Of a DNA stretch of 54,097 nt, positions 7,235 to 53,585 are shown one piece after another (position 1 is the stretch's first letter; each line of letters begins with the position of its first letter). The DNA is from a virus (taxonomy: Duplodnaviria > Caudoviricetes). The stretch is from the IMG/VR virus record IMGVR_UViG_3300046003_005296, positions 1 to 54,097 of that record. The stretch is one strand, 5' to 3'. The position numbers and the translations under genes were made by a program. The notes beneath the pieces were generated by a model, which saw only the letters and a list, made by a program, of their open reading frames with translations, was not told the origin of the DNA and did not search any database.

Positions 7235-8161
7235 ATGTTTGGACAACAAGAAAATACACTTTGGGTTGAGTCCTTCCGCCCGGATACATTGGAAGGGTAT
7301 ATTGGCAATGAACACATCATTGAAAAAGTTAAAATTTTTATCGAAAATGGTGATGTGCCGCACTTATTATTTTATGGGTCAGCAGGAACTGGTAAGACTA
7401 CATTGGCCAAGATTATTGCAAATAGCGTCGATGCTGATTTAATGTATATCAATGCATCAGATGAAAACTCAGTAGACGCAGTTCGTGATAAAATTAAGCG
7501 TTATGCATCAACAGTAGGATTTCGTAGATGGAAAATCATTATTTTAGATGAGGCAGATTATCTTACACCTAATGCTCAAGCAGCATTACGTAATTTAATG
7601 GAAACTTATAGCAAAACAACACGTTTTATTTTAACATGTAACTATGTTGAAAAGATCATTGATCCAATTCAATCGCGTTGTCAGACATTTGCAATTACAC
7701 CTCCAGGTAAACCAGATGTAGCAAAACGATTGGTTGCCGTTTTAAATGAAAAAGGTGTTGAATATGATATTAAAGATGTTGCTGCAATTATCAATGCATC
7801 ATATCCAGATATTCGTCGAGCACTTAATGCAGCACAAGCATCAGTTGTTAATGGAAAATTGCAATTAGATAAAGCAAGCGCTATTCAAGCAAATTATATG
7901 ACTGAAATTTTGGAAGTATTAAAAAATGCTAAAGACAAAAAAGCATCTTTCAATAAGATCCGTCAAATTATTGCAGATAGTAAAGTAAAAGATTTCACAC
8001 CATTATATACATTTCTTTATGACAGTTTGGATGAGTTTGCAACAGGTCATGTTGCACCATGCATTTTAATTATTGCAGAATCGCAATTCAAAGATGCATC
8101 GGTTGTAGATAAAGAAATTAATATTATGGCAATGTTTGTTAATTTATTAGGAGAACTATGA
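7235..8161 (+). CDS. Clamp loader AAA+ subunit (gp44/RFC-like)
   Basis: LWVESFRP, Walker A GSAGTGKT, INASDE, Walker B ILDEAD, SRC motif. Confidence 0.95.
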   Translation: MFGQQENTLWVESFRPDTLEGYIGNEHIIEKVKIFIENGDVPHLLFYGSAGTGKTTLAKIIANSVDADLMYINASDENSVDAVRDKIKRYASTVGFRRWKIIILDEADYLTPNAQAALRNLMETYSKTTRFILTCNYVEKIIDPIQSRCQTFAITPPGKPDVAKRLVAVLNEKGVEYDIKDVAAIINASYPDIRRALNAAQASVVNGKLQLDKASAIQANYMTEILEVLKNAKDKKASFNKIRQIIADSKVKDFTPLYTFLYDSLDEFATGHVAPCILIIAESQFKDASVVDKEINIMAMFVNLLGEL

Positions 8162-20545: not shown

Positions 20546-21149
20546 TATACATTGTTTAGCATTAAATTATCGAGGTATAGGATTATTGGATCAAGATCCA
20601 ATCTATTTTCTTAAATCTACTAGTTGTTTATCAAAAGAACATTCAACTATTCCATATCCTAAATATAAAGTTGATAATGTATGGACTGAAGTTGAATTAG
20701 GAATACTAATTGGACAAGATTGTGAAAATGTATCAGAAGACGATGCGTATAATGTAATTGAAGGTTTCTTTGTTGCCGGAGATATTACATGTAATAGTAT
20801 TTATGATCGCGATCATCATTTAGCATTTTCTAAATCTAGAACTGGATTTTGTCCTATATCATCTAATGTTACGCATTTAGATTTAAGAAATAAAACATTG
20901 GAAATGAAAACATTTATAAATGGCGTAGAACTTCAATGCGGTAATACTTCAGATATGATAATGAACCCATATCAATCTTTAAGTTATATTTCCAAATTAG
21001 TTAAGTTAAATAAAGGTGATATAATTTTAACAGGAACGCCTACTACAATTAATGGCGGACCACAAGTTGATTGTTTAGTTAAACCAAATGATGTTATCAA
21101 ACATAGTATCGAATCAATTGGCGAATTAAATTATAAGTTTAGCATATGA
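20532..21149 (+). CDS. Fumarylacetoacetate hydrolase family protein
   Basis: LNY, YFLK, EVELG, DIT, KS..GFCP, GDIILTGTP; start refined to ATG 20532. Confidence 0.88.
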   Translation: MAINNIHCLALNYRGIGLLDQDPIYFLKSTSCLSKEHSTIPYPKYKVDNVWTEVELGILIGQDCENVSEDDAYNVIEGFFVAGDITCNSIYDRDHHLAFSKSRTGFCPISSNVTHLDLRNKTLEMKTFINGVELQCGNTSDMIMNPYQSLSYISKLVKLNKGDIILTGTPTTINGGPQVDCLVKPNDVIKHSIESIGELNYKFSI

Positions 21150-27422: not shown

Positions 27423-28561
27423 TATCACTAATTATACCTAGTTACAACAATTTGCGACATTTAAAAAATGTATATGCAAGTATTCAAAAACACGCACCAG
27501 AAGCAGAAGTTATTTTATTAGATGATGGGTCAACTGACGGCACTAAAGATTGGATACAACAACAAAACTGTATTACATATAGAAGTGAAGAACGAGTGGG
27601 CCATACAATATTATATGATAAAGGTATCGAGCTCGCTACAAATGATATAGTGGGTATCTTACACGCCGATATGATTATTGGTCCTTTGTATATCGAAAAT
27701 ATGTTAAAGCACTTACAACCAGGGAAAGTTGTATGTGCGACCCGTATAGAACCACCTTTACACCCAGAAGGAAAAGAAAAGATCATAATGGATTTCGGAC
27801 AAGACTTTGATACCTTAGATATCAATGCATTTGAAGAATTTGTTATGCATAAACAAGAAGAAGAATTAGATAAAGTAACATATGGAATGTTTGCGCCATG
27901 GATTCTTTATAAAAAAGATTTTCAAGCTATTGGAGGTCATGACCCGTTATTTGCCCCGTTCCCATATGAAGATTCAGATATCTTCCAACGTTGGATATTA
28001 GCAGGATATGAATTAATACAGAGTCGAGATGCATTTGTATATCATTTAACATGTAGAGGCCATCGATGGACAGAACAAGTAGGGCAAGATGATGATTACT
28101 TTAAACAAGTTTCAGAAAAAGCTGGCAGAAACTATTTAAGAAAATGGGGTAGCTGGATTAAAAATAACGAATGGCAGTATCCTATTATTTTACCAAAATA
28201 CAATATTGCCTTCCGCGTAGAAAATTGTTCTCAAGATTTATTGCGTTTATTAGAGCCATGTTGCGATAGAATATATTCAGATGCAGAATGGATGAAATAT
28301 ATTACGTTAGAACAACCTAAAACTAAATATGATTTACGTAAACGATGTCATTCACTAACAGACATTGATCGATATGATTATGATGATATTGTAGTTGAAA
28401 TAGACGGTAAACGATTTACTCAACAAGATTATAATTTCATAGAAAATCTATCAGCAATTATACAAGATTCGGGAGAGGTCGGTATGTTTCAATTGGGCAA
28501 TTTAAAAATATCCATCATGAACATACAAGATCTTGTAAATGAACTCATTATTTGCAAGTAA
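27419..28561 (+). CDS. GT2 glycosyltransferase with a C-terminal extension
   Basis: IIPSYN, DDGSTDGT, LHAD, IGGHD, EDSD, VYH; paralogous to 14948..15790. Confidence 0.88.
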   Translation: MISLIIPSYNNLRHLKNVYASIQKHAPEAEVILLDDGSTDGTKDWIQQQNCITYRSEERVGHTILYDKGIELATNDIVGILHADMIIGPLYIENMLKHLQPGKVVCATRIEPPLHPEGKEKIIMDFGQDFDTLDINAFEEFVMHKQEEELDKVTYGMFAPWILYKKDFQAIGGHDPLFAPFPYEDSDIFQRWILAGYELIQSRDAFVYHLTCRGHRWTEQVGQDDDYFKQVSEKAGRNYLRKWGSWIKNNEWQYPIILPKYNIAFRVENCSQDLLRLLEPCCDRIYSDAEWMKYITLEQPKTKYDLRKRCHSLTDIDRYDYDDIVVEIDGKRFTQQDYNFIENLSAIIQDSGEVGMFQLGNLKISIMNIQDLVNELIICK

Positions 28562-28574
28562 TCTCTTTTGTCAT

Positions 28575-28583
28575 ATATTTATA
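28575..28583 (+). promoter_or_regulatory. Class II motif ATATTTATA upstream of the lysis cassette
   Basis: Intergenic; followed by a GGGAG RBS and ATG 28600. Confidence 0.55.
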
Positions 28584-28599
28584 CAAAAAGGGAGAATTT

Positions 28600-28851
28600 A
28601 TGGCAAAGTTTACAGACATTTTTAAAAATTCAAATGACTTTAATGAAAAAACTATTATCGGTTTTATGTCATTTGCAGTAATGACCATTGCAATGTTTGT
28701 TGATTTAATTACCGGATATTTCGGTAATGAATTAAAATTGAATGAGTACATTTATAATTCATTCGTTGTTGTTACATTAGGTAGCTTAGGTATTGCAGGT
28801 TTAGAAAAATTTGCAGGCAAAGGAAAAGATACTACTACTGAGGAAGAATAA
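28600..28851 (+). CDS. Small two-TM membrane protein (holin-like)
   Basis: Two hydrophobic segments and a charged C-terminus, coupled to the endolysin; start refined to ATG 28600. Confidence 0.6.
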   Translation: MAKFTDIFKNSNDFNEKTIIGFMSFAVMTIAMFVDLITGYFGNELKLNEYIYNSFVVVTLGSLGIAGLEKFAGKGKDTTTEEE

Positions 28852-29462
28852 TGAGTTTAAAAAGTTTACAAGAAAAAATTGGTGTTACGGCAGATGGAGC
28901 ATTTGGACCGGGCACAATGAAAAAAGCAATGGAGTTTTATAAATTAACTCCAGTTAGAGCAGCTCACTTTTTTGCGCAAACGTCACACGAAACGGGCGGC
29001 TTTAAAGCATTTTCAGAAAATTTAAATTATTCAGCATCAGGTCTACAAGGGATCTTTGGAAAATACTTTCCTGGAACATTAGAAGAGTCTTATGCGCGGC
29101 AACCAGAAAAGATTGCCAACCGAGTGTATGCAAGCCGAATGGGGAATGGCGATGAAGCATCAGGGGATGGTTGGAAGTATCGGGGCCGAGGTGCACTACA
29201 ACTCACAGGAAAATCGAATTATCAAGCATTTGCAGAATATCTTAAAAAACCAGAAATACTAGATACCCCAGATCTAGTTGCAACAACATATGCATTTGAA
29301 TCGGCAATGTTCTTTTTTGATCGTAATAAACTTTGGTCTATTTGTGACCAAGGCGTTAATGATGCAGCTATCTTAGCATTGACAAAAAGAATCAATGGCG
29401 GAACTCATGGTTTAGAAGATAGAAATGCTAAAACTAAAAAATATTACCAATACGTAAAATAA
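28851..29462 (+). CDS. GH19 endolysin with a short peptidoglycan-binding N-terminus
   Basis: ADGAFGPGT, FFAQTSHETGG, ENLNYS, YRGRGALQLTGKSNY, RINGGTHGL. Confidence 0.92.
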   Translation: MSLKSLQEKIGVTADGAFGPGTMKKAMEFYKLTPVRAAHFFAQTSHETGGFKAFSENLNYSASGLQGIFGKYFPGTLEESYARQPEKIANRVYASRMGNGDEASGDGWKYRGRGALQLTGKSNYQAFAEYLKKPEILDTPDLVATTYAFESAMFFFDRNKLWSICDQGVNDAAILALTKRINGGTHGLEDRNAKTKKYYQYVK

Positions 29463-29478
29463 TATTGAGGAAATTAGT

Positions 29479-30072
29479 ATGAGTTGTTATACAAGAGAAC
29501 AAATTGAAGCTGCAGTAAAAGCCAAAGGATATGCTTGGTTTGAAGGAGCAAAAGATTTTGATGTTAACATTGTCGGAGTTAGAAATTCTGATACTGGAAA
29601 TAAAGTAACCAACGCATTTGATGATTGCATCACGATTTCATATAAAGAAGGCGGCGAATGGAAATCACATTGTTGGCCTGCAACAACCGACCCGGGTAAG
29701 AAAGGTGTTCAACAATATCATAATGCAGCAGGCGTTGCTCGATTAGTAGAAGGTCAGTATAGAGGATCTCACACTTTAGGTTTACATCAAGGTAAATATG
29801 AAGCGTTAAAGCAACAAAAACCGGTTAAGGTTTATCGCGATCCAAATCGTGATTTAACTTATGATGAGAATAAAATAGCTGAAGGGGTATTTGGAATTAA
29901 TATTCACAAAGCTGGAGCTGATTCAACATATGTAGAGAATTGGTCAGAAGGTTGTCAGGTGTTTAAAAAAGCAGCTGATTTTGAATCATTCATGGCTGTT
30001 TGTCGCAAAGCTGCAGCAATTCATGGTAAATCATTTACATATACGTTAATCGAATCAGCGGACATTAAATAA
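29479..30072 (+). CDS. Putative cell-wall enzyme with a YkuD/L,D-transpeptidase-like motif
   Basis: GINIHKAG...WSEGCQV (H...SxGC); lies between endolysin and holin. Confidence 0.5.
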   Translation: MSCYTREQIEAAVKAKGYAWFEGAKDFDVNIVGVRNSDTGNKVTNAFDDCITISYKEGGEWKSHCWPATTDPGKKGVQQYHNAAGVARLVEGQYRGSHTLGLHQGKYEALKQQKPVKVYRDPNRDLTYDENKIAEGVFGINIHKAGADSTYVENWSEGCQVFKKAADFESFMAVCRKAAAIHGKSFTYTLIESADIK

Positions 30073-30497
30073 TGAAAACAACTACATTAACAACAGTCGG
30101 TATATATTCAGCGAGTACGATAATGGCATTTATCTGCACTTATTTTTTCAACTTAGCAATGGCAAATTCAGATCAATATTTGGCATTGGTTGGAGTAGTA
30201 ATGGCAGATGGCTTCTTTGGTGTAATTGCTGGAGTAAAACGAGAAGGGTTTCAAACCTTTAAAGCACTTAAAGTTTTGAAAACTTTAGTAAGTTGGATTA
30301 TTTTACTTACAACGTTGTTAATGGTAGAAAAAGGATTTAAAGGGACTAGTTGGTTAAGTGAGACCGTTCTAGTCCCTTTTATTATATTTCAATTAATTAG
30401 TGCATTAAAAAATGCATCAATGGCAGGCTTCATTAAAATGGAAGCATTGAATGCAATTCTAGACAAAGTAGATCTACATAAAGGCGATCGTAAATAA
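30072..30497 (+). CDS. Phage holin family protein
   Basis: Several TM segments, D..FG..AG and ISALKNA pattern. Confidence 0.65.
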   Translation: MKTTTLTTVGIYSASTIMAFICTYFFNLAMANSDQYLALVGVVMADGFFGVIAGVKREGFQTFKALKVLKTLVSWIILLTTLLMVEKGFKGTSWLSETVLVPFIIFQLISALKNASMAGFIKMEALNAILDKVDLHKGDRK

Positions 30498-30498
30498 T

Positions 30499-30527
30499 TT
30501 GGATATAATCTTAATATTCCTTATTAT
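30499..30527 (+). promoter_or_regulatory. Class I promoter TTGGAT-N17-TATTAT
   Basis: 30499-30504 and 30522-30527, ATG at 30533. Confidence 0.6.
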
Positions 30528-30532
30528 TTATT

Positions 30533-30880
30533 ATGAACTATAAACATTTAGCCTATTCATTTTTAATATTTTTATTTGGTCAAATCGTTGTTTGGATTCA
30601 AACAAATGGTCCATTAATTTGGCCATGGGCAAAGGAATATAGATTTTCATTGATGTTATTAGGAGTTCCAATAACGTGGGCTTTTATGGAAGCAACTAGA
30701 TTATCAGTATCAGGATTTTCTGGGGCTTTTTGGCCTGGCAGATTTCTTTCATTTGTTTCCGGAATAATAATATTTACATTAATGACATATCTTTTTAAAG
30801 ATGAAGGCATTAATATGAAAACAGCAATTTCTTTAACATTAGCATTCTCTCTTATTTTAGTACAGCTATTTTGGAAATAA
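30533..30880 (+). CDS. Four-TM small membrane protein (DMT/SMR-like)
   Basis: 115 aa with four hydrophobic helices. Confidence 0.55.
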   Translation: MNYKHLAYSFLIFLFGQIVVWIQTNGPLIWPWAKEYRFSLMLLGVPITWAFMEATRLSVSGFSGAFWPGRFLSFVSGIIIFTLMTYLFKDEGINMKTAISLTLAFSLILVQLFWK

Positions 30881-44983: not shown

Positions 44984-45592
44984 ATGAATTTTAAAATAAA
45001 TAAAAATCCAAATCCTAGATTCTACGTTGTAGATGATTTCTATGAATCTCCATCTCTTGTAAGAGACTTTGCATTGCAACAAGCCTATTATGAAGATCAA
45101 GGAGCAGTAGGGTTAAGAACTTCAGAACAATTTCTATTCGATGGATTGAAAGAACGTTTCGAAGAAATCATTGGGCGAGAAATACCTAATCATAATGAAA
45201 CGGGGTTTGGTTGGTATGATAAAGGTATTAATGGTAGATTTCAATCATGTAAAGCAGGCGTGCCATCAGTATTTCATTGTGATACTCAAAAATGGGCCGG
45301 AGTTATTTATTTAACACCCGATGCTCCGCCTCAAGCAGGTACAAGTTTTTATAGACATAAAGAAACTAAAAAAAGACATTCGTCTGAAATTAATTGGGAA
45401 AGGGGCGAAGGATTAAAAGTATTTAATCAACATACCTTCTTAGATGCATCACCTTATGAACGAGTAGATATGGTTGGAAATGTTTTTAACCGCTTAGTTA
45501 TTTTTGATGGCAATTTAATTCATTCAGGTCATGATTACTTTGGATGGGATATTGCGTCTAGTAGATTATTTCAAATATTTTTCTTTGATTAG
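44984..45592 (+). CDS. 2OG-Fe(II) oxygenase-like protein (DUF6445-like)
   Basis: VVDDFY, HCD (HxD), GVIYL, GTSFY, FNRL, H, RLFQIFF. Confidence 0.75.
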   Translation: MNFKINKNPNPRFYVVDDFYESPSLVRDFALQQAYYEDQGAVGLRTSEQFLFDGLKERFEEIIGREIPNHNETGFGWYDKGINGRFQSCKAGVPSVFHCDTQKWAGVIYLTPDAPPQAGTSFYRHKETKKRHSSEINWERGEGLKVFNQHTFLDASPYERVDMVGNVFNRLVIFDGNLIHSGHDYFGWDIASSRLFQIFFFD

Positions 45593-45595
45593 ATT

Positions 45596-45997
45596 ATGGA
45601 ATTATTAAATACACATCCTATTAAAAAAAGCGATTTAGGGTTTCATGGAAATCTATTTGGCGGTAAATTATTGAGTTGGATCGATGCATCAGCTGCAGGA
45701 TATTCAATGCAATTATGTGATACACCCCGCATGGTAACAGTATCAATCGATCAATGTAACTTTGAACGTCCTGCAAAGGAATCGCAGTTATTAAAGATAT
45801 ATGGATATCCTAAACGAGTTGGCAACACTTCAATGACATTGTACATGGAAGCCCGAGCACACAATGTTTATACTGGCAAACAAGATTTAGTATTAAAGAC
45901 TCATATAACATTTGTTCAAATTGATGAAGGTGGCAATTCAATTCCATTGGGCGAAAAAGCTAAAAAACGAATAATGGATATGTTAGAAAGTAAATAA
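45596..45997 (+). CDS. Acyl-CoA thioesterase (hotdog fold)
   Basis: HGNLFGGKLLSWID, VTVSID, VGNTSM, TFVQID. Confidence 0.88.
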   Translation: MELLNTHPIKKSDLGFHGNLFGGKLLSWIDASAAGYSMQLCDTPRMVTVSIDQCNFERPAKESQLLKIYGYPKRVGNTSMTLYMEARAHNVYTGKQDLVLKTHITFVQIDEGGNSIPLGEKAKKRIMDMLESK

Positions 45998-46022: not shown

Positions 46023-46050
46023 TATTGAACATTAAAAAAGGAGAGAATAA

Positions 46051-47964
46051 ATGAAAAAACTAACAAGTTTATTAACAATCCTTGCTGTTACATTAATTAC
46101 ATCAGTTACATTAGCCCAAGCACCTATAGCACCAGGTAATGGTATTTATGGTTTAATCCATGCAGAATATCAAGTGGCACCAACATCGCAAGGAACAACT
46201 ACTGCAAACATTACGTTGCAGAACACTACATTAACAAAATACACTGCAACACAATTCCGGGTATTTTATGACAATGTAGCATTTACAAATGCAACGGTTG
46301 CATTAATTGGTTCAACTACGAACTTAGATTTACAGTATGTAACTAATACTGCAAATGGTTATATTACAATTACTTTAGTATATACGGGTGCGTTATCTAC
46401 ATATACTTTAGCTAATGGGGAACGATTTGCAATTACCTTTACACACGCAGCCCCAGCAATATTTAATAACTTAGCATCAATTACGCCATTGACTTGGACA
46501 GGAACTCAAACCTTCCAACAATATGCTGCAACTGGAGCTGGTATTGATACTACATTGAATTTGCATAACTATGGCGGTGAATTCATTTTACCTACATTTA
46601 CATTTGCAGGAACATTTACTAACGTAACTGGTACTGGTGCTAAAGATTTACCATTAGCATTACAAACTCGTCCAGCCGGCGGATCTACTTGGACTCAACA
46701 TTCAACTTATTTAACTGATGTGAATGGTGATTTTGATTTCACAGTTAACTTAGATACAACTTATTGGGATGTCCGTTTAGCAATTCAAGGTGATACAATG
46801 GGAGTAGGTAACATTATTTCTGCTACCGATGCACAATTAATTAATCAATGGGTATTAGGGCAAGGAACAATGACTGGCTTTGATTATTATGCAGCAGACG
46901 TAAATGAATCTGATAATGTTACAATTACAGATGCATATGGCGTATTTAGTCGTGTAGCTGGCAACTTTACTCAATGGCCGAACAACGTTAAAGATATTAA
47001 ATTCTTTACCGCAACAGAATTTACAACTATTGATGGTTCTGCAACTAATTATACATCAACTATCCCAGGTGTAACTAACTTCACTTATGAGATTATTGCA
47101 GGTCAACCTTCATCAGTAACATATTATGTAGCTGTACCGGGTGATGCAAATGGTACTGGTTATCATATGGCACGTATGACTCCGATTGATATTTTAATTG
47201 ATCCTACTCCAGGTGTACCATCTCAGATTTATAATGTTATTGATAATACAGTTGAATATGATTTTCCAACTACATCGATCGAAGTAAATGTACCTTATTT
47301 GTCAGTGCAAGCTGGTAACTTGGTTGATATTCCAGTAACAGTTTACACAAATGGTGTAGAACTTAATTCATTGCAATTTGGATTTGATTATGATGAAACG
47401 GTATTAGAATTTAAAAACTTGTATTCAACATCAGCAGCAATGAAATGGTTAACATATGTTAATCCTAATGACGGAGAAATTCATTGGGGCGGTTATGATG
47501 CTACTGGTAATAATCCATTACAAGACAATACGGAAGTAGTTCGTTTACAATTCTTAGCATTACAACCTCAAGCTGCTTGGACAGAATCTCCAATTTGGAC
47601 AACTGAAAAATATGCTGGAAATACTGCGTCTAAAGACCTTGAGATTACTCCGACAAACGGTATATTGCAAGTAGTTAAAAGTTCAGTAGGCGGGGTTATT
47701 GATTTAAATACTGTTGAAATTTATCCAAATCCAGTAATAGATGATGTAACAATCACATTTAATGTAGAAAACGCATCTGCAGATGCACAATTAGCAGTTT
47801 ATGATTTGCAAGGAAGAAAAGTTGTAACAATATTATCAGGTCAGCTTCCTGCAGGACAATACACATATGTTAAGAATTTAGGACGATTAGCTCCTGGAAT
47901 GTATGTATTAAGTTTGTCTACTGAAACAAATGGCCCGATAGTAGAAAAATTAATAAAGGATTAA
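46051..47964 (+). CDS. Secreted protein with cohesin-like and dockerin-like domains and a T9SS C-terminal sorting domain
   Basis: Signal peptide; ADVNESDNVTITDA (dockerin-like); VDIPVTV...SLQFGFDYDETVLEF (cohesin-like); IYPNP...YDLQG...GMYVL...KLIK (T9SS type A CTD). Confidence 0.8.
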   Translation: MKKLTSLLTILAVTLITSVTLAQAPIAPGNGIYGLIHAEYQVAPTSQGTTTANITLQNTTLTKYTATQFRVFYDNVAFTNATVALIGSTTNLDLQYVTNTANGYITITLVYTGALSTYTLANGERFAITFTHAAPAIFNNLASITPLTWTGTQTFQQYAATGAGIDTTLNLHNYGGEFILPTFTFAGTFTNVTGTGAKDLPLALQTRPAGGSTWTQHSTYLTDVNGDFDFTVNLDTTYWDVRLAIQGDTMGVGNIISATDAQLINQWVLGQGTMTGFDYYAADVNESDNVTITDAYGVFSRVAGNFTQWPNNVKDIKFFTATEFTTIDGSATNYTSTIPGVTNFTYEIIAGQPSSVTYYVAVPGDANGTGYHMARMTPIDILIDPTPGVPSQIYNVIDNTVEYDFPTTSIEVNVPYLSVQAGNLVDIPVTVYTNGVELNSLQFGFDYDETVLEFKNLYSTSAAMKWLTYVNPNDGEIHWGGYDATGNNPLQDNTEVVRLQFLALQPQAAWTESPIWTTEKYAGNTASKDLEITPTNGILQVVKSSVGGVIDLNTVEIYPNPVIDDVTITFNVENASADAQLAVYDLQGRKVVTILSGQLPAGQYTYVKNLGRLAPGMYVLSLSTETNGPIVEKLIKD

Positions 47965-47965
47965 T

Positions 47966-48286
47966 ATGTCAGAAGAAATGAATGATGGATCATGGGGTGG
48001 TCTTAAGAAGACTATCGTTGGAACATTAGGCACGGTTGTAGCTGGTGGCGGAACTTGGTTAGGTGTAACTTTATTCGGTGGGCACGAAGACGAGCCGAAA
48101 GAAGAAACTAAAACGGAGCAAGCTGCTCCGGCACCTGTAGTTGTAAATGTACAACAAAATCAAGAAAACAAACAAAAGGTTGATAATAGCGGTAGTAACA
48201 AACGAACAGTTATTTATGAAAATCATCCGCCAAAGGATATTACCGAACCTGAGAAACCTAAAAAAGTAGAAGAAGAGTCATGGTAA
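47966..48286 (+). CDS. Small single-TM protein
   Basis: Gly-rich hydrophobic N-terminal helix and a low-complexity tail. Confidence 0.65.
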   Translation: MSEEMNDGSWGGLKKTIVGTLGTVVAGGGTWLGVTLFGGHEDEPKEETKTEQAAPAPVVVNVQQNQENKQKVDNSGSNKRTVIYENHPPKDITEPEKPKKVEEESW

Positions 48287-49008
48287 GATTACTTCCATTA
48301 TTATTATTTGTGTTAGGGCTGGCTTCTTGTAAGTCAGCCTCAGCACAAGGTATAGGATCTGTTAAGACAGAACAATACCAAGCTGAGTTTGAAAAGAAAC
48401 AAAGCATTGATGCTGTAGCTGATTATGATGGTGCAGTACAAATTCCAATTCAGGTATTGAAAATTGGAATTAATGAAGAACTTTATGAAATGTATCCTGA
48501 ACTTAAAGATAAACGAGTAGGTTTGGGTGTTGCAAACATTGTGTTAGAATATTTAGAATATACTAATCGCTTTGTGTTTACTGAAGAAAAAGAAGAAATT
48601 AAGCAACGAATGATTGCTCAAGATAAAGCATCTGATAAAGGTATATCGCAAAATAAAATTGATGTTAAAGGCAATGTTATATTAGCTAAATACTTTGTAT
48701 ACATTGAAGTATATGATTTTTCAGTATCAGAAGATGAAGTAGTTAAAATAGATGGCAAGCAAACTGTTACTCAAACAACACGTTTAGGTTTGCAAGTTAA
48801 ATTTGTCGATGCTGAGACTGGCCAGGTGATAATGGGTTCGGGTTTAGGTGAAGCAAGCACAGTAAAAATGTCATCAATTTTAGGAGATGTAACAGATGAA
48901 GTTAAGTTCAATCAATCTACCATAGGTATCAGCACCAAAAAAGCACTTGAGACGGCTTCAAGTCGAATTGTTAGCAGAATGATTACCAAAGGTATATTTA
49001 CGCATTGA
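48280..49008 (+). CDS. CsgG-like lipoprotein
   Basis: Lipobox LASC; L..TNRF...E, V..VDAETG.VI pattern of the CsgG/TolB-N-like family. Confidence 0.65.
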   Translation: MVRLLPLLLFVLGLASCKSASAQGIGSVKTEQYQAEFEKKQSIDAVADYDGAVQIPIQVLKIGINEELYEMYPELKDKRVGLGVANIVLEYLEYTNRFVFTEEKEEIKQRMIAQDKASDKGISQNKIDVKGNVILAKYFVYIEVYDFSVSEDEVVKIDGKQTVTQTTRLGLQVKFVDAETGQVIMGSGLGEASTVKMSSILGDVTDEVKFNQSTIGISTKKALETASSRIVSRMITKGIFTH

Positions 49009-50510
49009 GACTTAAATTATTCATATTAATATTTATTAGTGTATTTGTTAGTTTAGCATATGCACAAACCTATAATTATAGTTACACAGATCCCTGCACA
49101 GGAAACCTTAAAACAATAATTGTACCAATTAATGGCGATGTAACAGTTGGCTACTATGGAGAAATTGGAACATTTAGTTACGCAGATTTCACTGATGGCA
49201 CATTTGAAACATGGACTAGTAACATATTTGATCAATATGGTCAAGATTCTCCATGTGCAACAATTGTAGGTATCGGTACTGCAGTTACTGTTACTCAAAA
49301 TACTACATTCACTGTATTAGGTATTTTGAATTCACTATCAGCAATTGCAGACATTGCAAGTAGCGGAACATCAAATATATTAGGCGGATCAATTGGATCA
49401 ATAAGTAATGGGTCCGGATCTGAAGGTAATAACGACAATAAAGAAAACAAGGATAAAAATGGCAACGACAATGGCAATAATAACAGTAATGCTAATAATA
49501 GCAATAGCAGTAATGTCAATGGTGGCAGTAATGGCAACCAGACGTCAGGACAAGCTAACGGCGAAACTGTACAAGGAACATCATCAGAGACAACAAGCAC
49601 AGAAAATCCATCAGGAAGTGAAGGAACAAGTACAGAGGGGTCTGCAGCGGAACAAGGAAATGTTGGAGGCACAGGGCAAGAAAGTGGTACCGAAACCACA
49701 TCCGGAGAGCAAACAACTAGTGTTGGAGGAAGTGGTTCGGGATCAGAAACCGGTAGCCAAGAAACACAAACCCAGACGCAAGAACCGTCAGAAGGCGAAG
49801 GCAAAACAAATATAACACAAGGTGCTACTACTACTACAAAGAATGCTCCAAGCAAATCAGAGGGAGGGAAACCTAGTGTAGTAGCATCTAGTGACTTTGT
49901 TGGGTTCAACTTTAGAAACTCGGAAGTACGAACTGGTGCAAAAGCAACTGGCGGTTATACTGCTTTGCGTTGGGATGGTCAAAGAAGTTGGGGTGCATTA
50001 GCAGATTACACTACGGCGCTCAAAGGACCAAATATTACAGGATTTTATGCATGGATCAAACCAAAGTCAGTAACATTATTATCAGGTACTGCTACAATTG
50101 GGTTTGATGGTAACAAATCATTGTATGGTACAATTGCAGCAGGCCAAATGTTTACGTTTAAGAAAGCTCCTAAACTTAAAGCAGTATACATGGGAACCGT
50201 ATCATATGGTCAAATATTTCGAGAACAATTTATCGGAACAGCTGTAATTGCAGGTGCAATGTATGATCTTAAATTGGGTAAACGATTTGATTTAAAACTT
50301 ATGAATTTATTTGTATATGCTCCATATGTTTCTTATTACAATGATATAGTGTTAGCATCTCCATATGTAATGCTTCCATCAATTGGTACGAATGTTAGAA
50401 TCACAAAACGATTTAAATTCAATATCAATGCTGGAGGAGCCTGGGACTTGAAAACGGCAGCACTTAATTATACAGTGACAATGGGTACGAGGATAATGAT
50501 AGGACAATAA
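49005..50510 (+). CDS. Exported protein with a low-complexity linker and a predicted C-terminal beta-barrel
   Basis: Signal peptide (TTG start); N/S/G/T/E-rich linker at about 49420-49860; alternating beta-strands at the C-terminus. Confidence 0.6.
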   Translation: MRLKLFILIFISVFVSLAYAQTYNYSYTDPCTGNLKTIIVPINGDVTVGYYGEIGTFSYADFTDGTFETWTSNIFDQYGQDSPCATIVGIGTAVTVTQNTTFTVLGILNSLSAIADIASSGTSNILGGSIGSISNGSGSEGNNDNKENKDKNGNDNGNNNSNANNSNSSNVNGGSNGNQTSGQANGETVQGTSSETTSTENPSGSEGTSTEGSAAEQGNVGGTGQESGTETTSGEQTTSVGGSGSGSETGSQETQTQTQEPSEGEGKTNITQGATTTTKNAPSKSEGGKPSVVASSDFVGFNFRNSEVRTGAKATGGYTALRWDGQRSWGALADYTTALKGPNITGFYAWIKPKSVTLLSGTATIGFDGNKSLYGTIAAGQMFTFKKAPKLKAVYMGTVSYGQIFREQFIGTAVIAGAMYDLKLGKRFDLKLMNLFVYAPYVSYYNDIVLASPYVMLPSIGTNVRITKRFKFNINAGGAWDLKTAALNYTVTMGTRIMIGQ

Positions 50511-51587
50511 ATGAAATGGATAGTCGTTATACTGCCAATATTGGTTAATTTTACTGCGTTTGCACAAAGTACGTTGTGCTCTAGTTACCCTACCACTTTT
50601 TGCTGCGAATATGTTTCAAGTGTAACTATTAATGGACAAACTTATGCTGGTAGTACTGGATATGCTGCATCATCAGGTGGTACTGGCCCAAATGGTTATT
50701 ATAATTATACTAATTCAACACCTGTTCCGACAATTAATGCTGGCCAGAATATTTCTATTTCATACACTGCACAAACAAATGGCAATTATATGGAGTATTT
50801 TAAACTTTGGGTTGACTTTAATGGCAACGGAGTCTTAAGTGACCCAGGCGAACAAGTTTATGCTTATAATGTTGCTTGGACTGGAACTAAAACAGTAACA
50901 TCGACATTTCAAGTTCCTACTACAGTATATAATGGACAAGTTTATATGCGATTCATGATGGTGTATGCAAATGTGCCTGCTTTATGCGGTAGTTATGCAT
51001 ATGGTAATACGTTTGATTTTAAAACAACTATTACCGGTGCAGTTGACCCATATAATCATTCTGGCGTTGTTTATGGGTCTGAAGGAACTGGAATAGCTAA
51101 TGTTCCAATTAAACTTTATAAAAAATTAACTTCAGAAACATCATATTCATTGCATGGTACGTACACAACAAATGCATCCGGGCAATATTCAATAACTACA
51201 AATTTAAATGCAAATTTATATAATTTTCAACTAGTTGTAGATGCATTAACAGTTAATAATCCTGCAATTGCAGATGCATTATATTTCAATCAAAAAGTTC
51301 TATCAAATAATTTTATATCAAAAGATTATTATCGTATGAATACAAATGGAGATCTCCGTTTAACTATTACAGATGTATATTGGATTTATAAAAAAATATT
51401 AGGAAGTGCGTGGTTAGGTAGTACTCCTATCTACCGTTTATTCACACAAACACAATGGAATGTTATTAATACATCTACTAGCAATATGACAGGAACGTAT
51501 CCCGGCGTTCAAAGTTTAACCATAACAAATCCAACAAACAGCGGGACGACAAACATTTATTTTATAAGGACAGGCTATGCAAATTAA
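50511..51587 (+). CDS. Secreted GEVED-like protein with a dockerin-like repeat
   Basis: Signal peptide; WVDFNGNG..D.GE, MRF, YGNTFDF; NTNGDLRLTITDV. Confidence 0.7.
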   Translation: MKWIVVILPILVNFTAFAQSTLCSSYPTTFCCEYVSSVTINGQTYAGSTGYAASSGGTGPNGYYNYTNSTPVPTINAGQNISISYTAQTNGNYMEYFKLWVDFNGNGVLSDPGEQVYAYNVAWTGTKTVTSTFQVPTTVYNGQVYMRFMMVYANVPALCGSYAYGNTFDFKTTITGAVDPYNHSGVVYGSEGTGIANVPIKLYKKLTSETSYSLHGTYTTNASGQYSITTNLNANLYNFQLVVDALTVNNPAIADALYFNQKVLSNNFISKDYYRMNTNGDLRLTITDVYWIYKKILGSAWLGSTPIYRLFTQTQWNVINTSTSNMTGTYPGVQSLTITNPTNSGTTNIYFIRTGYAN

Positions 51588-52161
51588 ACTATTAATTATT
51601 CTTTTATTCCCGTTTGCTTTTTTAGCACAACCAAATCTTACTATCGATAAGAAGTATTACAAAGTAACTTACTCACAAAAACTTAAACAACCTTTAACAG
51701 TTGATTATGGCATAAGAACTAGAGAATGCACTGCAACGCGCTCAGGAATGGAATTTTATGCTGAGAAAGGTGTAATTACTAGTAGCAATGTAGATTATGC
51801 AAACAATGAATGGGATAAAGGACATATGGCTCCAGCAGCAGACTTTTGCTATAGCAGAGATGCAATGCTATCAACCTTTTCATATGCTAATAGTGCTTTA
51901 CAACATTACAAACTCAATCGAGGAGTGTGGAAAGAATTAGAAGCAGCAGAAAGAGTTTGGGCTACAAAAGATTCTATCATAGTTCATATTGATGTGATAT
52001 TTGATGCTAATCCAGCAAAGACTCCAGGAGGCGCATCAATACCAAAAGCATTCCGCAAGACAATTACATTTTATTCAACGGGCAAGAAGTTGGTATATGA
52101 ATTTCCAAATGTACCTCCAACGCAACCATTACCTAAGTATTTAATTAAAGGCAAACTATGA
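51577..52161 (+). CDS. Secreted DNA/RNA non-specific endonuclease (NucA/EndoG family)
   Basis: Signal peptide; DKGHMAPAAD, TF.YAN, LNRGVWKELE, IPKAF.K. Confidence 0.9.
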   Translation: MQIKLLIILLFPFAFLAQPNLTIDKKYYKVTYSQKLKQPLTVDYGIRTRECTATRSGMEFYAEKGVITSSNVDYANNEWDKGHMAPAADFCYSRDAMLSTFSYANSALQHYKLNRGVWKELEAAERVWATKDSIIVHIDVIFDANPAKTPGGASIPKAFRKTITFYSTGKKLVYEFPNVPPTQPLPKYLIKGKL

Positions 52162-52601
52162 GATGGTTATTAACGGCACTATTGTTTTCTTCATTGAGCT
52201 ATGCACAATGTGTTACAGTAGATACAGTTTATTCAACTGCTAAGTTAAGAGAGTTAGGAAATCGAGATATTCGGTTTGGAGTAAAACAAATTGCAGAAGA
52301 AGAATTATCAGATCGATATTGTATTGCCGATGATGGCGATGCTGTACGAGTTGAAGTATTTTATTTTGGAATACCTAAGTATACAATACGTATTGTAGGA
52401 GTTGAAAGAACCAATCAAGTAACGCAAGTAGGAGTACGTTTGTATTATAAAGGCAAATGTTATGAAGGCATCGGCGAATCTGATACAGAGGTAAGGGCTG
52501 TTATGATTGAATTAGTAGATAATAAAGTTCCATTTGATAAGATGACAGTATCATCTGCACTAAAGAAAGCTATCCATGAAGCTGTTAGCAATATGCCTTA
52601 G
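52158..52601 (+). CDS. Exported hypothetical protein, distantly similar to the CsgG-like gene
   Basis: Signal peptide; QVTQVGVRL, GIGES and F....VSSALKKA echo QTTRLGLQV, GLGEA and FNQSTIGISTKKA of 48280..49008. Confidence 0.6.
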   Translation: MRWLLTALLFSSLSYAQCVTVDTVYSTAKLRELGNRDIRFGVKQIAEEELSDRYCIADDGDAVRVEVFYFGIPKYTIRIVGVERTNQVTQVGVRLYYKGKCYEGIGESDTEVRAVMIELVDNKVPFDKMTVSSALKKAIHEAVSNMP

Positions 52602-53025
52602 TTTCATTCCATTCATTGCATTTAGTCAAATACGTATTGATGATGTAGGAGATGGTTGGAAAACACAAGTAGAACAAGCATTGCAACTTATCAAGAACGT
52701 TGATAGCAACAAGTATAAAGTTGTTATAGAGTATTGTGATCATATATCATACGCATTAATACCATATTCGACTACAGAAGCAGGACACGTCATATTGTTA
52801 TCAACCGCAGAAATGCGTCGAGGTAATGTGTATGATATTGCTACGGCAATAGTGCATGAGTCATTGCATTTGTATTTTCAAAAGCATCCTATAGGATTAG
52901 ATCCAAATGATGAAGAAGCATTATGTTATGCTTATGAAATAGAATTTCTCAAACAAATACCAGGAGTTGATCCATGGCTCATTGAGCATGCAATGAAATA
53001 TTATCTATACTTTTCTGAAAAATAG
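52576..53025 (+). CDS. Secreted HExxH metallopeptidase-like protein
   Basis: Signal peptide; IVHESLH and downstream EEALCY. Confidence 0.65.
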   Translation: MKLLAICLSFIPFIAFSQIRIDDVGDGWKTQVEQALQLIKNVDSNKYKVVIEYCDHISYALIPYSTTEAGHVILLSTAEMRRGNVYDIATAIVHESLHLYFQKHPIGLDPNDEEALCYAYEIEFLKQIPGVDPWLIEHAMKYYLYFSEK

Positions 53026-53026
53026 G

Positions 53027-53055
53027 TTGGACGTTTGAAATATTCTTCTTATATT
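53027..53055 (+). promoter_or_regulatory. Class I promoter TTGGAC-N17-TATATT
   Basis: Upstream of a small ORF and the tRNA/ncRNA block. Confidence 0.55.
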
Positions 53056-53071
53056 ATATAAAAATAAAGAG

Positions 53072-53239
53072 ATGGAATTAAATAAGATTAGCGAAGGTTT
53101 ATTTGAATTAGTAGATTCAGCGACTGGCACAGTTATTACAAGAGGTTCATGGGATCATTGTTTTGATTGGATGGCTGAATTAGATCGAGAAAATGAAAAT
53201 GCATCATATGCTGCATTTTTATCAGTATCAGGCATATGA
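53072..53239 (+). CDS. 55-aa hypothetical protein (absent from the ORF track)
   Basis: MELNKISEGLFELVDSATG...FLSVSGI*; leader AAAATAAAGAG as at 38268 and 39520. Confidence 0.6.
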   Translation: MELNKISEGLFELVDSATGTVITRGSWDHCFDWMAELDRENENASYAAFLSVSGI

Positions 53240-53244
53240 TATAT

Positions 53245-53328
53245 GCTTGGGTGGTGGAATAGGTAGACACGCCGGACTTAAAATCCTGTGGGCATTTGCC
53301 CGTGCGGGTTCGATTCCCGCCCCAAGTA
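53245..53328 (+). tRNA. tRNA-Leu (TAA)
   Basis: Acceptor GCTTGGG/CCCAAGT, anticodon loop CTTAAAA, long variable arm GGGCATTTGCCC, T arm GCGGG-TTCGATT-CCCGC; CCA not encoded. Confidence 0.93.
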
Positions 53329-53504
53329 CACCCTGTCAAGGTAGTGACACGTTTCGGTTCATCACCGAATAGTATGTCCAATATGATGAGAAGTAGGCTG
53401 ATTACCTACATGGGACTTCTGATAGGGAAACGCTCTATCCGGTTTGACTAACCGCGGGGAATATCAAAGGGATGCAAAGAACAACGTGCTCTCGTAGTCA
53501 TTAT
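53329..53504 (+). ncRNA. Structured non-coding segment between the tRNAs
   Basis: No credible ORF; five consecutive hairpins (53334-49, 53353-69, 53393-409, 53421-39, 53440-54). Confidence 0.55.
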
Positions 53505-53578
53505 GGTCTTTTAGCTCAGTAGGTTAGAGCAACTGACTCATAATCAGTAGGTGCTAGGTTCGAGCCCTAGAAGGACCA
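53505..53578 (+). tRNA. tRNA with CAT anticodon (probably Ile2/lysidine type, otherwise Met)
   Basis: Acceptor GGTCTTT/AAGGACC, D arm GCTC/GAGC, ACTGA-CTCATAA-TCAGT, T arm CTAGG-TTCGAGC-CCTAG; lacks initiator features. Confidence 0.9.
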
Positions 53579-53585
53579 CAAAAAA

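Follow-up and report, generated by a model that had tools for sequence, protein, structure and literature searches.

The window analysed here, a stretch of 54,097 bases that makes up the whole of IMG/VR record IMGVR_UViG_3300046003_005296 (Duplodnaviria; Caudoviricetes), possesses a block of eight genes on the plus strand (positions 46,051–53,025; products P1–P8, Table 1), and all eight products look exported, judging by their N-terminal sequences. We give even chances to the reading that this conserved accessory block rebuilds the envelope of the infected Bacteroidota cell through host export routes, is coupled to lysis in most relatives and carries swappable glycan-binding heads. It starts from gene order, export signals, domain families and folds, conservation and linkage to lysis genes, all of which were observed directly. 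A first examination of the letters and their open reading frames (ORFs), hereafter the original prediction, had already suggested envelope remodelling, and this part of its interpretation is still the best reading; what it had overlooked is that the block is interleaved with lysis genes in related phages, so that a lysis-linked role is a serious rival.

The window is phage DNA. Its products match PHROG families of T4-type PolB (8e-181), clamp-loader subunits, dUTPase, thymidylate synthase, GroEL and a GH19-type endolysin. Estimated completeness of the genome is ~17%, and all long ORFs of the window lie on the plus strand.

Gene Layout and Export Signals

The exact ORFs confirm the tight packing that had been reported for these eight genes: from P1 to P8 the spacing is +1, −7, −4, 0, −11, −4 and −26 nt. 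No terminator-like site was found on the plus strand inside the block, and a scan for promoters and terminators stayed at the level of shuffled sequence (48 versus 49.5; 3 versus 5.1). A strong Shine–Dalgarno-like GGAGAG is located 7 nt ahead of the P1 start (window 46,030–46,050). Flavobacterium-type bacteria are said to use Shine–Dalgarno sites rarely, so the motif would be notable if the host is of this type.

Export was assessed with a hydrophobicity heuristic, which looks for an N-terminal 10-mer with a Kyte–Doolittle mean above 2.0 and takes the other plus-strand ORFs of at least 90 aa as a control. An export-type N-terminal segment is present in 8/8 block products and in 4/56 control ORFs, namely a Rossmann GxGxxG false positive (at 21,146) and three membrane proteins of the lysis cassette beside the endolysin. 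The claim that every member of the block is of the export type therefore stands, with P2 as the weakest case: its segment is Gly/Thr-rich, the mean of its 19-mer is 1.29, and no 17-mer reaches 1.5.

Signals of P1, P4, P5, P6, P7 and P8 end with A or S followed by Q, which covers all six cleavable-type signals outside the lipoprotein. No row departs from this Q in the alignments of P1 (24 rows), P4 (27), P7 (24) and P8 (24), and it is found in 18/18 P6 homologues among the matches listed. Glutamine directly after the signal corresponds to the Q-rule known for substrates of signal peptidase I in Bacteroidetes (PMC5837995 and PMC10653852); this speaks in favour of genuine export and of a host from the Bacteroidota.

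Table 1. Features of the window (coordinates are window positions; TM, transmembrane; T9SS, type IX secretion system).
Feature	Position	Strand	Assignment or basis
P1, 637 aa	46051–47964	+	T9SS type-A cargo; family carries cohesin and dockerin
P2, 106 aa	47966–48286	+	Putative anchor protein, weakly hydrophobic
P3, 242 aa	48280–49008	+	CsgG-fold lipoprotein (predicted fold)
P4, 501 aa, TTG start	49005–50510	+	Stalked 12-strand barrel (predicted)
P5, 358 aa	50511–51587	+	GEVED protein
P6, 194 aa	51577–52161	+	Non-specific (NS) nuclease
P7, 147 aa	52158–52601	+	Short P3 paralogue
P8, 149 aa	52576–53025	+	Small protein with invariant HExxH
tRNA-Leu(TAA), tRNA-Met(CAT)	53245–53579		Immediately 3′ of the block
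DUF6445 protein (PHROG named "minor coat protein") and 4HBT thioesterase	44984–45997		Directly upstream of the block
AAA ATPase of CobS-like PHROG (phrog_249), then a 690-aa partner, then phage GroEL	38268–43247		
Lysis cassette	28552–30880	+	PHROG/Pfam and hydrophobicity
Small two-TM protein	28552–28851	+	Hydrophobic segments 33–58 and 67–87, charged tail; directly ahead of the endolysin
GH19 endolysin with peptidoglycan-binding-like N-terminal stretch	28851–29459	+	GH19 match
Second lysin-like protein	within 28552–30880		phrog_3000
Phage_holin_4_1 protein	30072–30494	+	Pfam; two genes beyond the endolysin
Further membrane protein, three segments	within 28552–30880		Hydrophobicity
Sugar-nucleotide/glycan gene run, ~25 kb	3030–28561		PHROG-based

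P1, P5 and the Variable Head Slot

P1 begins with a signal peptide (LA↓QA) and an N-terminal domain, continues with an Ig-like plus dockerin-like cassette (~182–345) and a cohesin-like region (~405–545), and terminates with a type-A C-terminal sorting domain of the T9SS (557–636). The sorting domain matches Por_Secre_tail (PF18962; 7.3e-11, 42.6 bits versus a cut-off of 27) and TIGR04183 (1.2e-11, 44.4 bits versus a cut-off of 23), so P1 combines the two features of a T9SS type-A cargo, a Sec-type signal and a type-A sorting domain. Among 24 homologues, Por_Secre_tail is matched by all 24, Cohesin (PF00963) by 21 (best 2.7e-12) and Dockerin_1 by five. The P1 family profile also finds solved T9SS sorting domains, the ScaB dockerin (7.6e-4, positions 245–311) and, weakly, a solved cohesin (0.077, positions 408–543). 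The description of P1 as a cohesin/dockerin T9SS cargo is thus sound in its T9SS part, which lies above both cut-offs, whereas the cohesin is seen only in homologues and the dockerin falls below its cut-off.

P5 consists of a signal peptide (FA↓QS), a Cys-rich start, a GEVED domain (PF20009; 4.7e-13, 50.2 bits versus a cut-off of 24.4, residues 96–171) and a cassette of the same Ig-like plus dockerin-like type. The cassette of ~200 residues is common to P5 (136–337) and P1 (146–345), with 27% identity and an E-value of 7e-19. P5 had been called a GEVED/dockerin protein; GEVED is well supported, but the protein itself gives no dockerin match in Pfam, and its link to dockerins runs only through homology to the P1 cassette.

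The slot between P4 and P7, occupied by P5 and P6 in the window, is variable in related loci. Export-type N-termini are present in 43 of the 49 distinct ORFs of at least 70 aa located there. A C-type lectin domain was detected in 5/11 slot ORFs scanned; one also carries a LamG/ConA-like domain and another Ig_7. Many slot ORFs begin, by eye, with a cassette of the P1/P5 type. Because the slot content differs among relatives, the block can be described as a fixed core with an exchangeable glycan-binding head, and the window version is one with a GEVED head (P5) and an added nuclease.

CsgG-Fold Proteins P3 and P7

P3 carries the lipobox LAS↓C (residues 14–17) of an outer-membrane-type lipoprotein, and a Cys is found at the signal end in most rows of the 37-row family alignment, which was derived from 248 representative clusters. 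Taken alone, the protein has no Pfam match at E up to 10 and no sequence match in the PDB. At the family level, 21/37 members match PF03783 (best 1.9e-17), and the family profile finds E. coli CsgG at 2.6e-4. An AlphaFold (AF2) model with a predicted local distance difference test score (pLDDT) of 77 and a low-confidence region at 189–209 has the alpha/beta core fold of CsgG, which is its best match both in Foldseek (6.8e-8, TM-score 0.53–0.59) and in VIA (Z 13.9 over 185 residues, root-mean-square deviation 3.4 Å). The next fold class follows at Z 10.8, with CT253, PelC, the FlgT ring and LptE as the next relatives (Z 9–10.8). Searched against BFVD, the model comes closest among viral proteins to one called CsgG that belongs to an uncultured phage (6e-8), which adds nothing beyond the PDB result. 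The lipobox, the VIA score and the family profile all bear out the original identification of P3 as a CsgG-like lipoprotein.

The original prediction also referred to CsgG as forming outer-membrane secretion pores, a property that cannot be safely transferred to P3. Aligned with the first membrane hairpin of CsgG, the corresponding hairpin of the P3 family is ~6 residues shorter, and its tip columns (150–154 and 160–168) are polar or charged across 35–37 rows, which is not expected of a hairpin facing lipid. The second hairpin region (189–209) falls in the low-confidence part of the model. No relatives of CsgA, CsgB, CsgE or CsgF were detected by Pfam at E up to 10 for P2, P4, P7 or P8, and PDB profile searches with P7, P8 and P4 returned chance-level rows only, with no Csg chain among them. 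Considering the short polar hairpin and the lack of a detectable curlin, CsgE or CsgF relative, we regard P3 as a CsgG-fold lipoprotein that is possibly ring-forming, and a CsgG-type pore as doubtful.

P7 is a short paralogue of the P3 core without the helical insert; it appears soluble, with a signal peptide (YA↓QC) and no lipobox. Comparison with the P3 family by hhalign gives a probability of 97.2% and an E-value of 3.2e-11 over 115 columns, confirming the earlier view of a second CsgG-related protein. Q17 and C18 are invariant in the P7 alignment (24 rows). We considered P7 as a lipoprotein and rejected this assignment, as the spacing from Q to C in homologues varies from 1 to 12 residues with the A/S–Q site fixed.

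P2, P4, P6 and P8

P2 consists of a short acidic N-terminus, a KK pair, a Gly/Thr-rich segment (~17–38) and a tail rich in P, E, K, Q and N that ends with a C-terminal Trp. No match was obtained in Pfam, PHROG or NCBIfam. In an alignment of 23 rows with a mean column identity of 61%, the segment and the preceding Lys pair are strongly conserved and W106 is invariant. We take P2 for a probable anchor in the inner membrane whose tail extends into the periplasm.

P4 possesses a signal peptide (YA↓QT), a small N-terminal domain (22–119) with invariant C31 and C84 and a long helix, a linker (~120–290) and a barrel region (291–499). The linker of ~170 aa is low-complexity, rich in S, G, N, T and E, and disordered. 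The AF2 model places 12 antiparallel strands in the barrel block, where pLDDT is mostly 60–79 with dips to 36–54; a 12-strand barrel is thus predicted at middling confidence, in agreement with the barrel and long linker proposed originally. No helix is modelled right before the barrel, in a stretch with pLDDT below 40. Foldseek matches comprise the autotransporter barrels of NalP and EstA, FapF, intimin and NanC/KdgM (2e-6 to 1e-4, TM-score to the target up to 0.72). Pfam families were found neither in P4 nor in its 27 homologues, save for one chance match. An Atlas look-up gave Phage_OMP (0.89) and OMP_b-brl (0.88), to be taken as leads only.

P6 is a facultative member of the block. It combines a signal peptide (LA↓QP) with a DNA/RNA non-specific endonuclease, and its earlier designation as a nuclease is well founded: it matches Endonuclease_NS (PF01223; 2.2e-24, 86.8 bits versus a cut-off of 23) and phrog_14168 (1e-21). 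The translation contains the motifs DKGH and NxGxWxxLE, which we take to be catalytic.

P8 is a small zincin-like protein with a signal peptide (FS↓QI) and the motif HESLH. H94, E95, H98, E113 and E114 are invariant in an alignment of 24 rows. Homologues give sub-threshold matches to zincin families, including SprT-like (7/24, best 5.8e-4), Tox-MPTase2 (3/24) and DA1-like (2/24), and P8 has no sequence match in the PDB. Of the proposed HExxH peptidase, the invariant motif is therefore certain, whereas the family matches all remain under the thresholds. The Atlas look-up again provides leads only, DUF6647 and eCIS_core (both 0.93).

Distribution in Phages and Bacteria

Searching IMG/VR with P3 gave 182 candidate stretches, of which 162 were confirmed as relatives. 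We kept 80 loci, many of which are near-duplicates and do not represent 80 independent lineages, and added the locus of a cultured phage described below, giving 81. Synteny was counted by tblastn with thresholds set by us and with loci cut at 7 kb. A homologue of P4 is present in all 81 loci, P1 and P2 in 77 each, P7 in 69, P8 in 68 and P6 in 22; P1–P4 occur together in 77/81. The four loci without P1 and P2 start just ahead of P3, and 12 loci without P7 end shortly past P4. P3 is the most conserved member of the block, with 70–97% identity across the 80 IMG/VR loci; identity of P1 drops to 45%. Loci with the same gene order include contigs of 150–290 kb.

A tblastn search with P3 against 50,697 phage records found relatives only in four records of immuto. 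In the cultured Flavobacterium phage vB_FspM_immuto (NC_055915), the block corresponds to gp012–gp019, a single plus-strand run with homologues of P6, P5 (annotated as C-type lectin), P1, P2, P3, P4 and P7; the genes carry generic names only in this record. P3 of immuto is 71% identical to that of the window. The two versions differ in that the immuto run starts with the nuclease, its P1 is split into gp014 and gp015 (the latter annotated "cohesin domain"), and no P8 homologue was found in it.

The remaining backbone of immuto is only partly shared. GroEL is 56% identical to the window GroEL, but NC_055915 gave no match to the window PolB or clamp loader (44–2560 and 7235–8161). The block is therefore common to different replication backbones and more conserved than the chaperonin, and replication modules have apparently been exchanged between the lineages of the window phage and immuto. 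The best match of the window PolB in the phage collection belongs to Microcystis phage Mel-JY01 (45%).

In bacteria, a search of one genome per species in 185,579 species found a close P3 relative on only two contigs, both from Bacteroidota metagenome-assembled genomes (MAGs). One of them, of 254 kb, carries P1–P4, a P5-like gene and P7; the other is 112 kb long. Among 401 Bacteroidota genomes, 44 contain a match to the P3 profile, 43 of them at no more than 63 bits versus 260 bits for the close relative in a MAG. Six of the 43 were examined and proved to be ordinary PF03783 proteins of 294–347 aa. No curli genes were found in the 1.5-kb flanks of these six loci. In four of the six, the CsgG-family gene is adjoined by a gene for an extracytoplasmic function (ECF) sigma factor, once accompanied by a zf-HC2 anti-sigma-like gene.

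Proposed Function and Competing Explanations

We hypothesize that the products of the block are installed by host machinery, namely Sec, lipoprotein sorting, barrel assembly and type IX secretion. P1 would be exported by Sec and then directed by its type-A C-terminal domain through the host T9SS to the cell surface. There its cohesin-like domain may capture proteins bearing the cassette: P5 with its GEVED head in the window phage, and proteins with C-type-lectin or LamG heads in relatives. Exchangeable glycan-binding heads would in this way decorate the infected cell and, later, its debris. P3, P7, P2 and P4 would make up the membrane part, with P3 as a ring or plug under the barrel, resembling the PelC/PelB and LptE/LptD pairs, likelier than as a free-standing CsgG pore. 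The nuclease P6 and the small putative zincin P8 may act in the periplasm or outside the cell. As a benefit, masking or binding of surface glycans could exclude other phages and keep progeny off debris; adhesion is another possible outcome. The purposes named in the original prediction, namely superinfection exclusion, grazing defence, adhesion or nutrient capture, are likewise hypothetical. Localisation, protein contacts, timing and purpose are thus what we infer.

Several observations weigh against envelope remodelling in this form. The window P1 itself has no cohesin match at E up to 10, and its match to Dockerin_1 (0.0023, 18.6 bits) lies under the Pfam cut-off of 22.9. P5, P6 and P8 possess signal peptides but no T9SS domain, leaving their passage across the outer membrane unexplained. 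P2 had been listed as a transmembrane protein; its export-type N-terminal segment is real, but the hydrophobicity of this segment is under the usual transmembrane thresholds. The P4 model has an overall pLDDT of only 50, which is low-to-middling confidence. Conservation of P3 at 70–97% is unusual for host-range or exclusion factors. Finally, holin-like and endolysin genes are interleaved with the block, an arrangement that could reflect a direct part in lysis just as well as co-regulation.

This interleaving is extensive. A homologue of a lysis gene occurs within flanks of up to 7 kb in 64/81 loci: the window endolysin in 54, the second lysin-like gene in 37 and the small two-transmembrane gene (28552–28851) in 29. 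In 22 loci a homologue of the latter sits between P2 and P3. Where the gap between P2 and P3 exceeds 150 nt, the 32 distinct longest ORFs in the gap all belong to two small hydrophobic types: 18 are of the small transmembrane type, and the other 14 form a second one, likewise with two hydrophobic stretches by eye. In four loci the second type is extended to ~200 aa and has an acidic tail ending in a Cys/His-rich stretch. The nearest relatives of the window phage have the order P8, transmembrane gene, endolysin, second lysin.

It is therefore conceivable, though we think it rather unlikely, that the membrane core (P2, the small two-transmembrane protein, P3, P4 and P7) is lysis machinery that performs the outer-membrane step in Bacteroidota hosts. 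P2 and P3 would then act like a two-component spanin or another breaker spanning the envelope, and the lectin scaffold and hydrolases would simply travel with them on one late transcript. Besides the linkage just described, the succession of an anchor-protein gene and an overlapping lipoprotein gene, which is the layout of spanin genes, speaks for such a role. For Bacteroidetes phages a survey mentions only unimolecular spanins (PMC12596118), which leaves little known about how the outer membrane is dealt with in this group. The two units can nevertheless be uncoupled: in the window the block lies 15 kb from the lysis cassette and has no embedded two-transmembrane gene, and no lysin is annotated across 18 kb surrounding the block of immuto. 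P3 as a 225-aa globular CsgG-fold protein with 70–97% conservation is also unlike o-spanins, which are short and fast-evolving. The tail of P2 is short and low-complexity and not evidently a coiled coil. Nor is a T9SS cargo, a lectin or a nuclease known to take part in lysis.

Both functions might be joined, an option that we likewise consider unlikely. P2, the two-transmembrane protein, a P3/P7 ring and P4 would form, with the holin and endolysin, one machine spanning both membranes and provide the outer-membrane step of lysis, while the cohesin protein, exported by the T9SS, would cover the dying cell and what remains of it with swappable lectin heads that mask the glycan receptor used by the phage itself. 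Dockerin-tagged heads without a T9SS tag of their own may then leave through the T9SS bound to the cohesin of P1.

Less probable still is that P3 (with P7 and P2) or P4 serves as a CsgG-type, type VIII-like channel that takes P5, P6 and P8, or another polymer, across the outer membrane, its purpose being to scavenge nutrients from outside DNA and protein, or uptake. CsgG is the best structural match of P3, and the best-conserved motif in the P3 family (Y72, P73, L75, G81 and G83) aligns with the CsgG loop YPASNF, which lines the channel constriction. A channel would also give P5, P6 and P8, with their signal peptides and no T9SS domain, a way out, and the amyloid-secretion barrel FapF is among the matches of P4. 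Similar ideas have been published for pelagimyophage csgGF (PMC7029224). Arguments against the channel are the short P3 hairpin with its polar or charged tip, the lack of a detected CsgA, CsgB, CsgE or CsgF relative, and the about equal matches of P4 to all 12-strand barrels. The CsgG channel is about 1 nm wide, and P5, being Cys-rich and multi-domain, would be a poor substrate for it.

A place for the products in or on the virion, for instance in decoration or adhesion, is in our view highly improbable. Phage particles can bear domains of the Ig-like, lectin and cohesin type. An Ig-like sandwich is also the fold of the T9SS sorting domain (PMC11285876). In contrast, the products carry cleavable signals with a conserved Q, plus a lipobox; none of the eight matches a structural PHROG, in line with the original view that they are not virion components; and the neighbours of the block are replication, nucleotide and lysis genes rather than a structural module. 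Lastly, host DNA mis-assembled onto a phage contig, or a recent host-derived island, would account for T9SS sorting, GEVED, cohesin and CsgG families typical of Bacteroidota cells, but is very unlikely, because the block recurs in the same order on the 80 IMG/VR loci and in a cultured phage while close bacterial copies amount to two MAG contigs, the other 43 Bacteroidota matches being at the ordinary CsgG level; moreover, it shares the strand and a similar G+C content with the rest of the window (0.34–0.38 versus 0.27–0.39) and has phage genes or tRNAs on both sides.

Comparison with Known Systems

For the favoured reading, envelope remodelling through host export routes, the nearest published counterparts are partial curli csgG/csgF clusters in T4-like pelagimyophages (PMC7029224) and in the Methylophilales phage Melnitz (PMC9004378). 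The authors of these two reports propose a pore, aggregation or "sibling capture", or lysis timing, and the function stays unexplained. The original prediction knew of no described phage system like the one in the window; with these clusters in print, the statement was too strong. The two reports describe lytic aquatic phages that carry a CsgG-family lipoprotein in a small cluster of exported proteins and infect hosts with no matching system, as appears to be the case here. Differences are equally clear. Their CsgG was recognised as such by the authors and comes with CsgF, whereas P3 has no Pfam match of its own and the block has no detectable relative of CsgF, CsgE or curlin. The block adds a T9SS cohesin/dockerin cargo, swappable heads, a predicted 12-strand barrel, a CsgG-fold paralogue, a nuclease and a putative zincin, and it is tied to lysis genes.

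Related elements have been noted elsewhere. Exported proteins following the Q-rule are described in Porphyromonas phages (PMC10367356), and ORFs with a T9SS sorting domain on gut phage contigs (PMC6949934) are, in the searches made, the only T9SS-tagged ORFs on phage DNA to be mentioned, and this only in passing. A search for a published description of this gene combination or of the immuto block found none, with most subscription journals and supplements outside its reach. Phage csgG/csgF clusters are thus already in print, and the particular combination in this block appears to be undescribed.

Compared with E. coli CsgG (PDB 4uv2, 4uv3, 6l7a), P3 is likewise a lipoprotein and its model has the same alpha/beta core (Z 12.5–13.9, 169–201 residues aligned), but the identity is only 12–15%, the hairpin is shorter and polar, and the curli partners are missing. 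The fold class also includes PelC (Z 10.8) and LptE (Z ~9), which function in the PelC/PelB and LptE/LptD pairs (PDB 9h80, 5t0z, 5ixm); as in these pairs, P3 is encoded beside a predicted outer-membrane barrel, P4. The PelB and LptD barrels are larger, P4 having only 12 strands in its model, and the Z scores are below that of CsgG.

P4 resembles type Va autotransporters and FapF in its arrangement of an N-terminal domain, a long linker and a C-terminal 12-strand barrel. It differs in having no Pfam autotransporter match, no evident helix or plug in the lumen (in a model of middling confidence) and a linker as long as ~170 aa.

P1 resembles T9SS cargo proteins in its signal and type-A domain and cellulosome components in the cohesin and dockerin modules of its family. 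Unlike in cellulosome pairs, cohesin and dockerin reside in one chain, the cargo is encoded by a lytic phage, and binding is hypothetical.

The order of P2 followed by the overlapping lipoprotein gene P3, located among holin-like and endolysin genes in relatives, recalls the two-component spanins Rz/Rz1. Unlike these, P3 is large, globular and highly conserved, and P2 is weakly hydrophobic with no evident coiled coil.

Genomic Context of the Block

The DUF6445 protein and 4HBT thioesterase encoded ahead of the block have no export signal by the hydrophobicity heuristic. A thioesterase homologue adjoins the block in only 7/81 related loci and is directly upstream in two.

The long glycan gene run encodes a cytidylyltransferase-like protein, several glycosyltransferases, dTDP-4-dehydrorhamnose 3,5-epimerase, NAD-dependent epimerases, a SIS-domain protein, methyltransferases and a GtrB-like protein. 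None of its ORFs has a strong membrane segment by the hydrophobicity heuristic; accordingly, no synthase, flippase or transporter is visible in the cluster. The glycan may be destined for DNA, the virion or a host envelope precursor. Genes for polysaccharide or lipopolysaccharide transport with membrane segments were not found elsewhere in the window either. We considered P3 and P4 as a PelBC-like exporter for the product of this cluster and set the idea aside on account of the missing membrane segments, in a test that covers the ~17% of the genome present in the window.

In a freshwater metatranscriptome run, 8% of sampled words from the window were present. The contigs are mostly 90–95% alike and come from a relative; they overlap with portions of P1, P2, P4 and P7 and with the P3/P4 junction, and thyA is partly covered too. 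DNA carry-over is possible and genes cannot be ranked from contigs, and we do not count these contigs as evidence of transcription. Depth was greatest (82) at the tRNA-Leu bin (52,990–53,359), where contigs continue into unlike sequence and probably come from tRNAs of other organisms.

Significance

Since phage immuto and Flavobacterium sp. LMO8 are a cultured pair and the phage has the block, the proposed function can be tested directly. The block bears on how Bacteroidota phages breach or use the outer membrane, in a group where spanins are barely known. It also bears on the role of phage CsgG-family proteins, unexplained since the report on pelagimyophages, and on whether phages mask glycans with lectins in order to protect their progeny or to exclude rivals. 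If envelope remodelling is true, widespread large phages of freshwater and brackish Bacteroidota would spend 7–12 kb on proteins for the host envelope, installed by host machinery that includes the phylum-specific T9SS, and a lytic phage would here clearly be giving the virocell a new surface.

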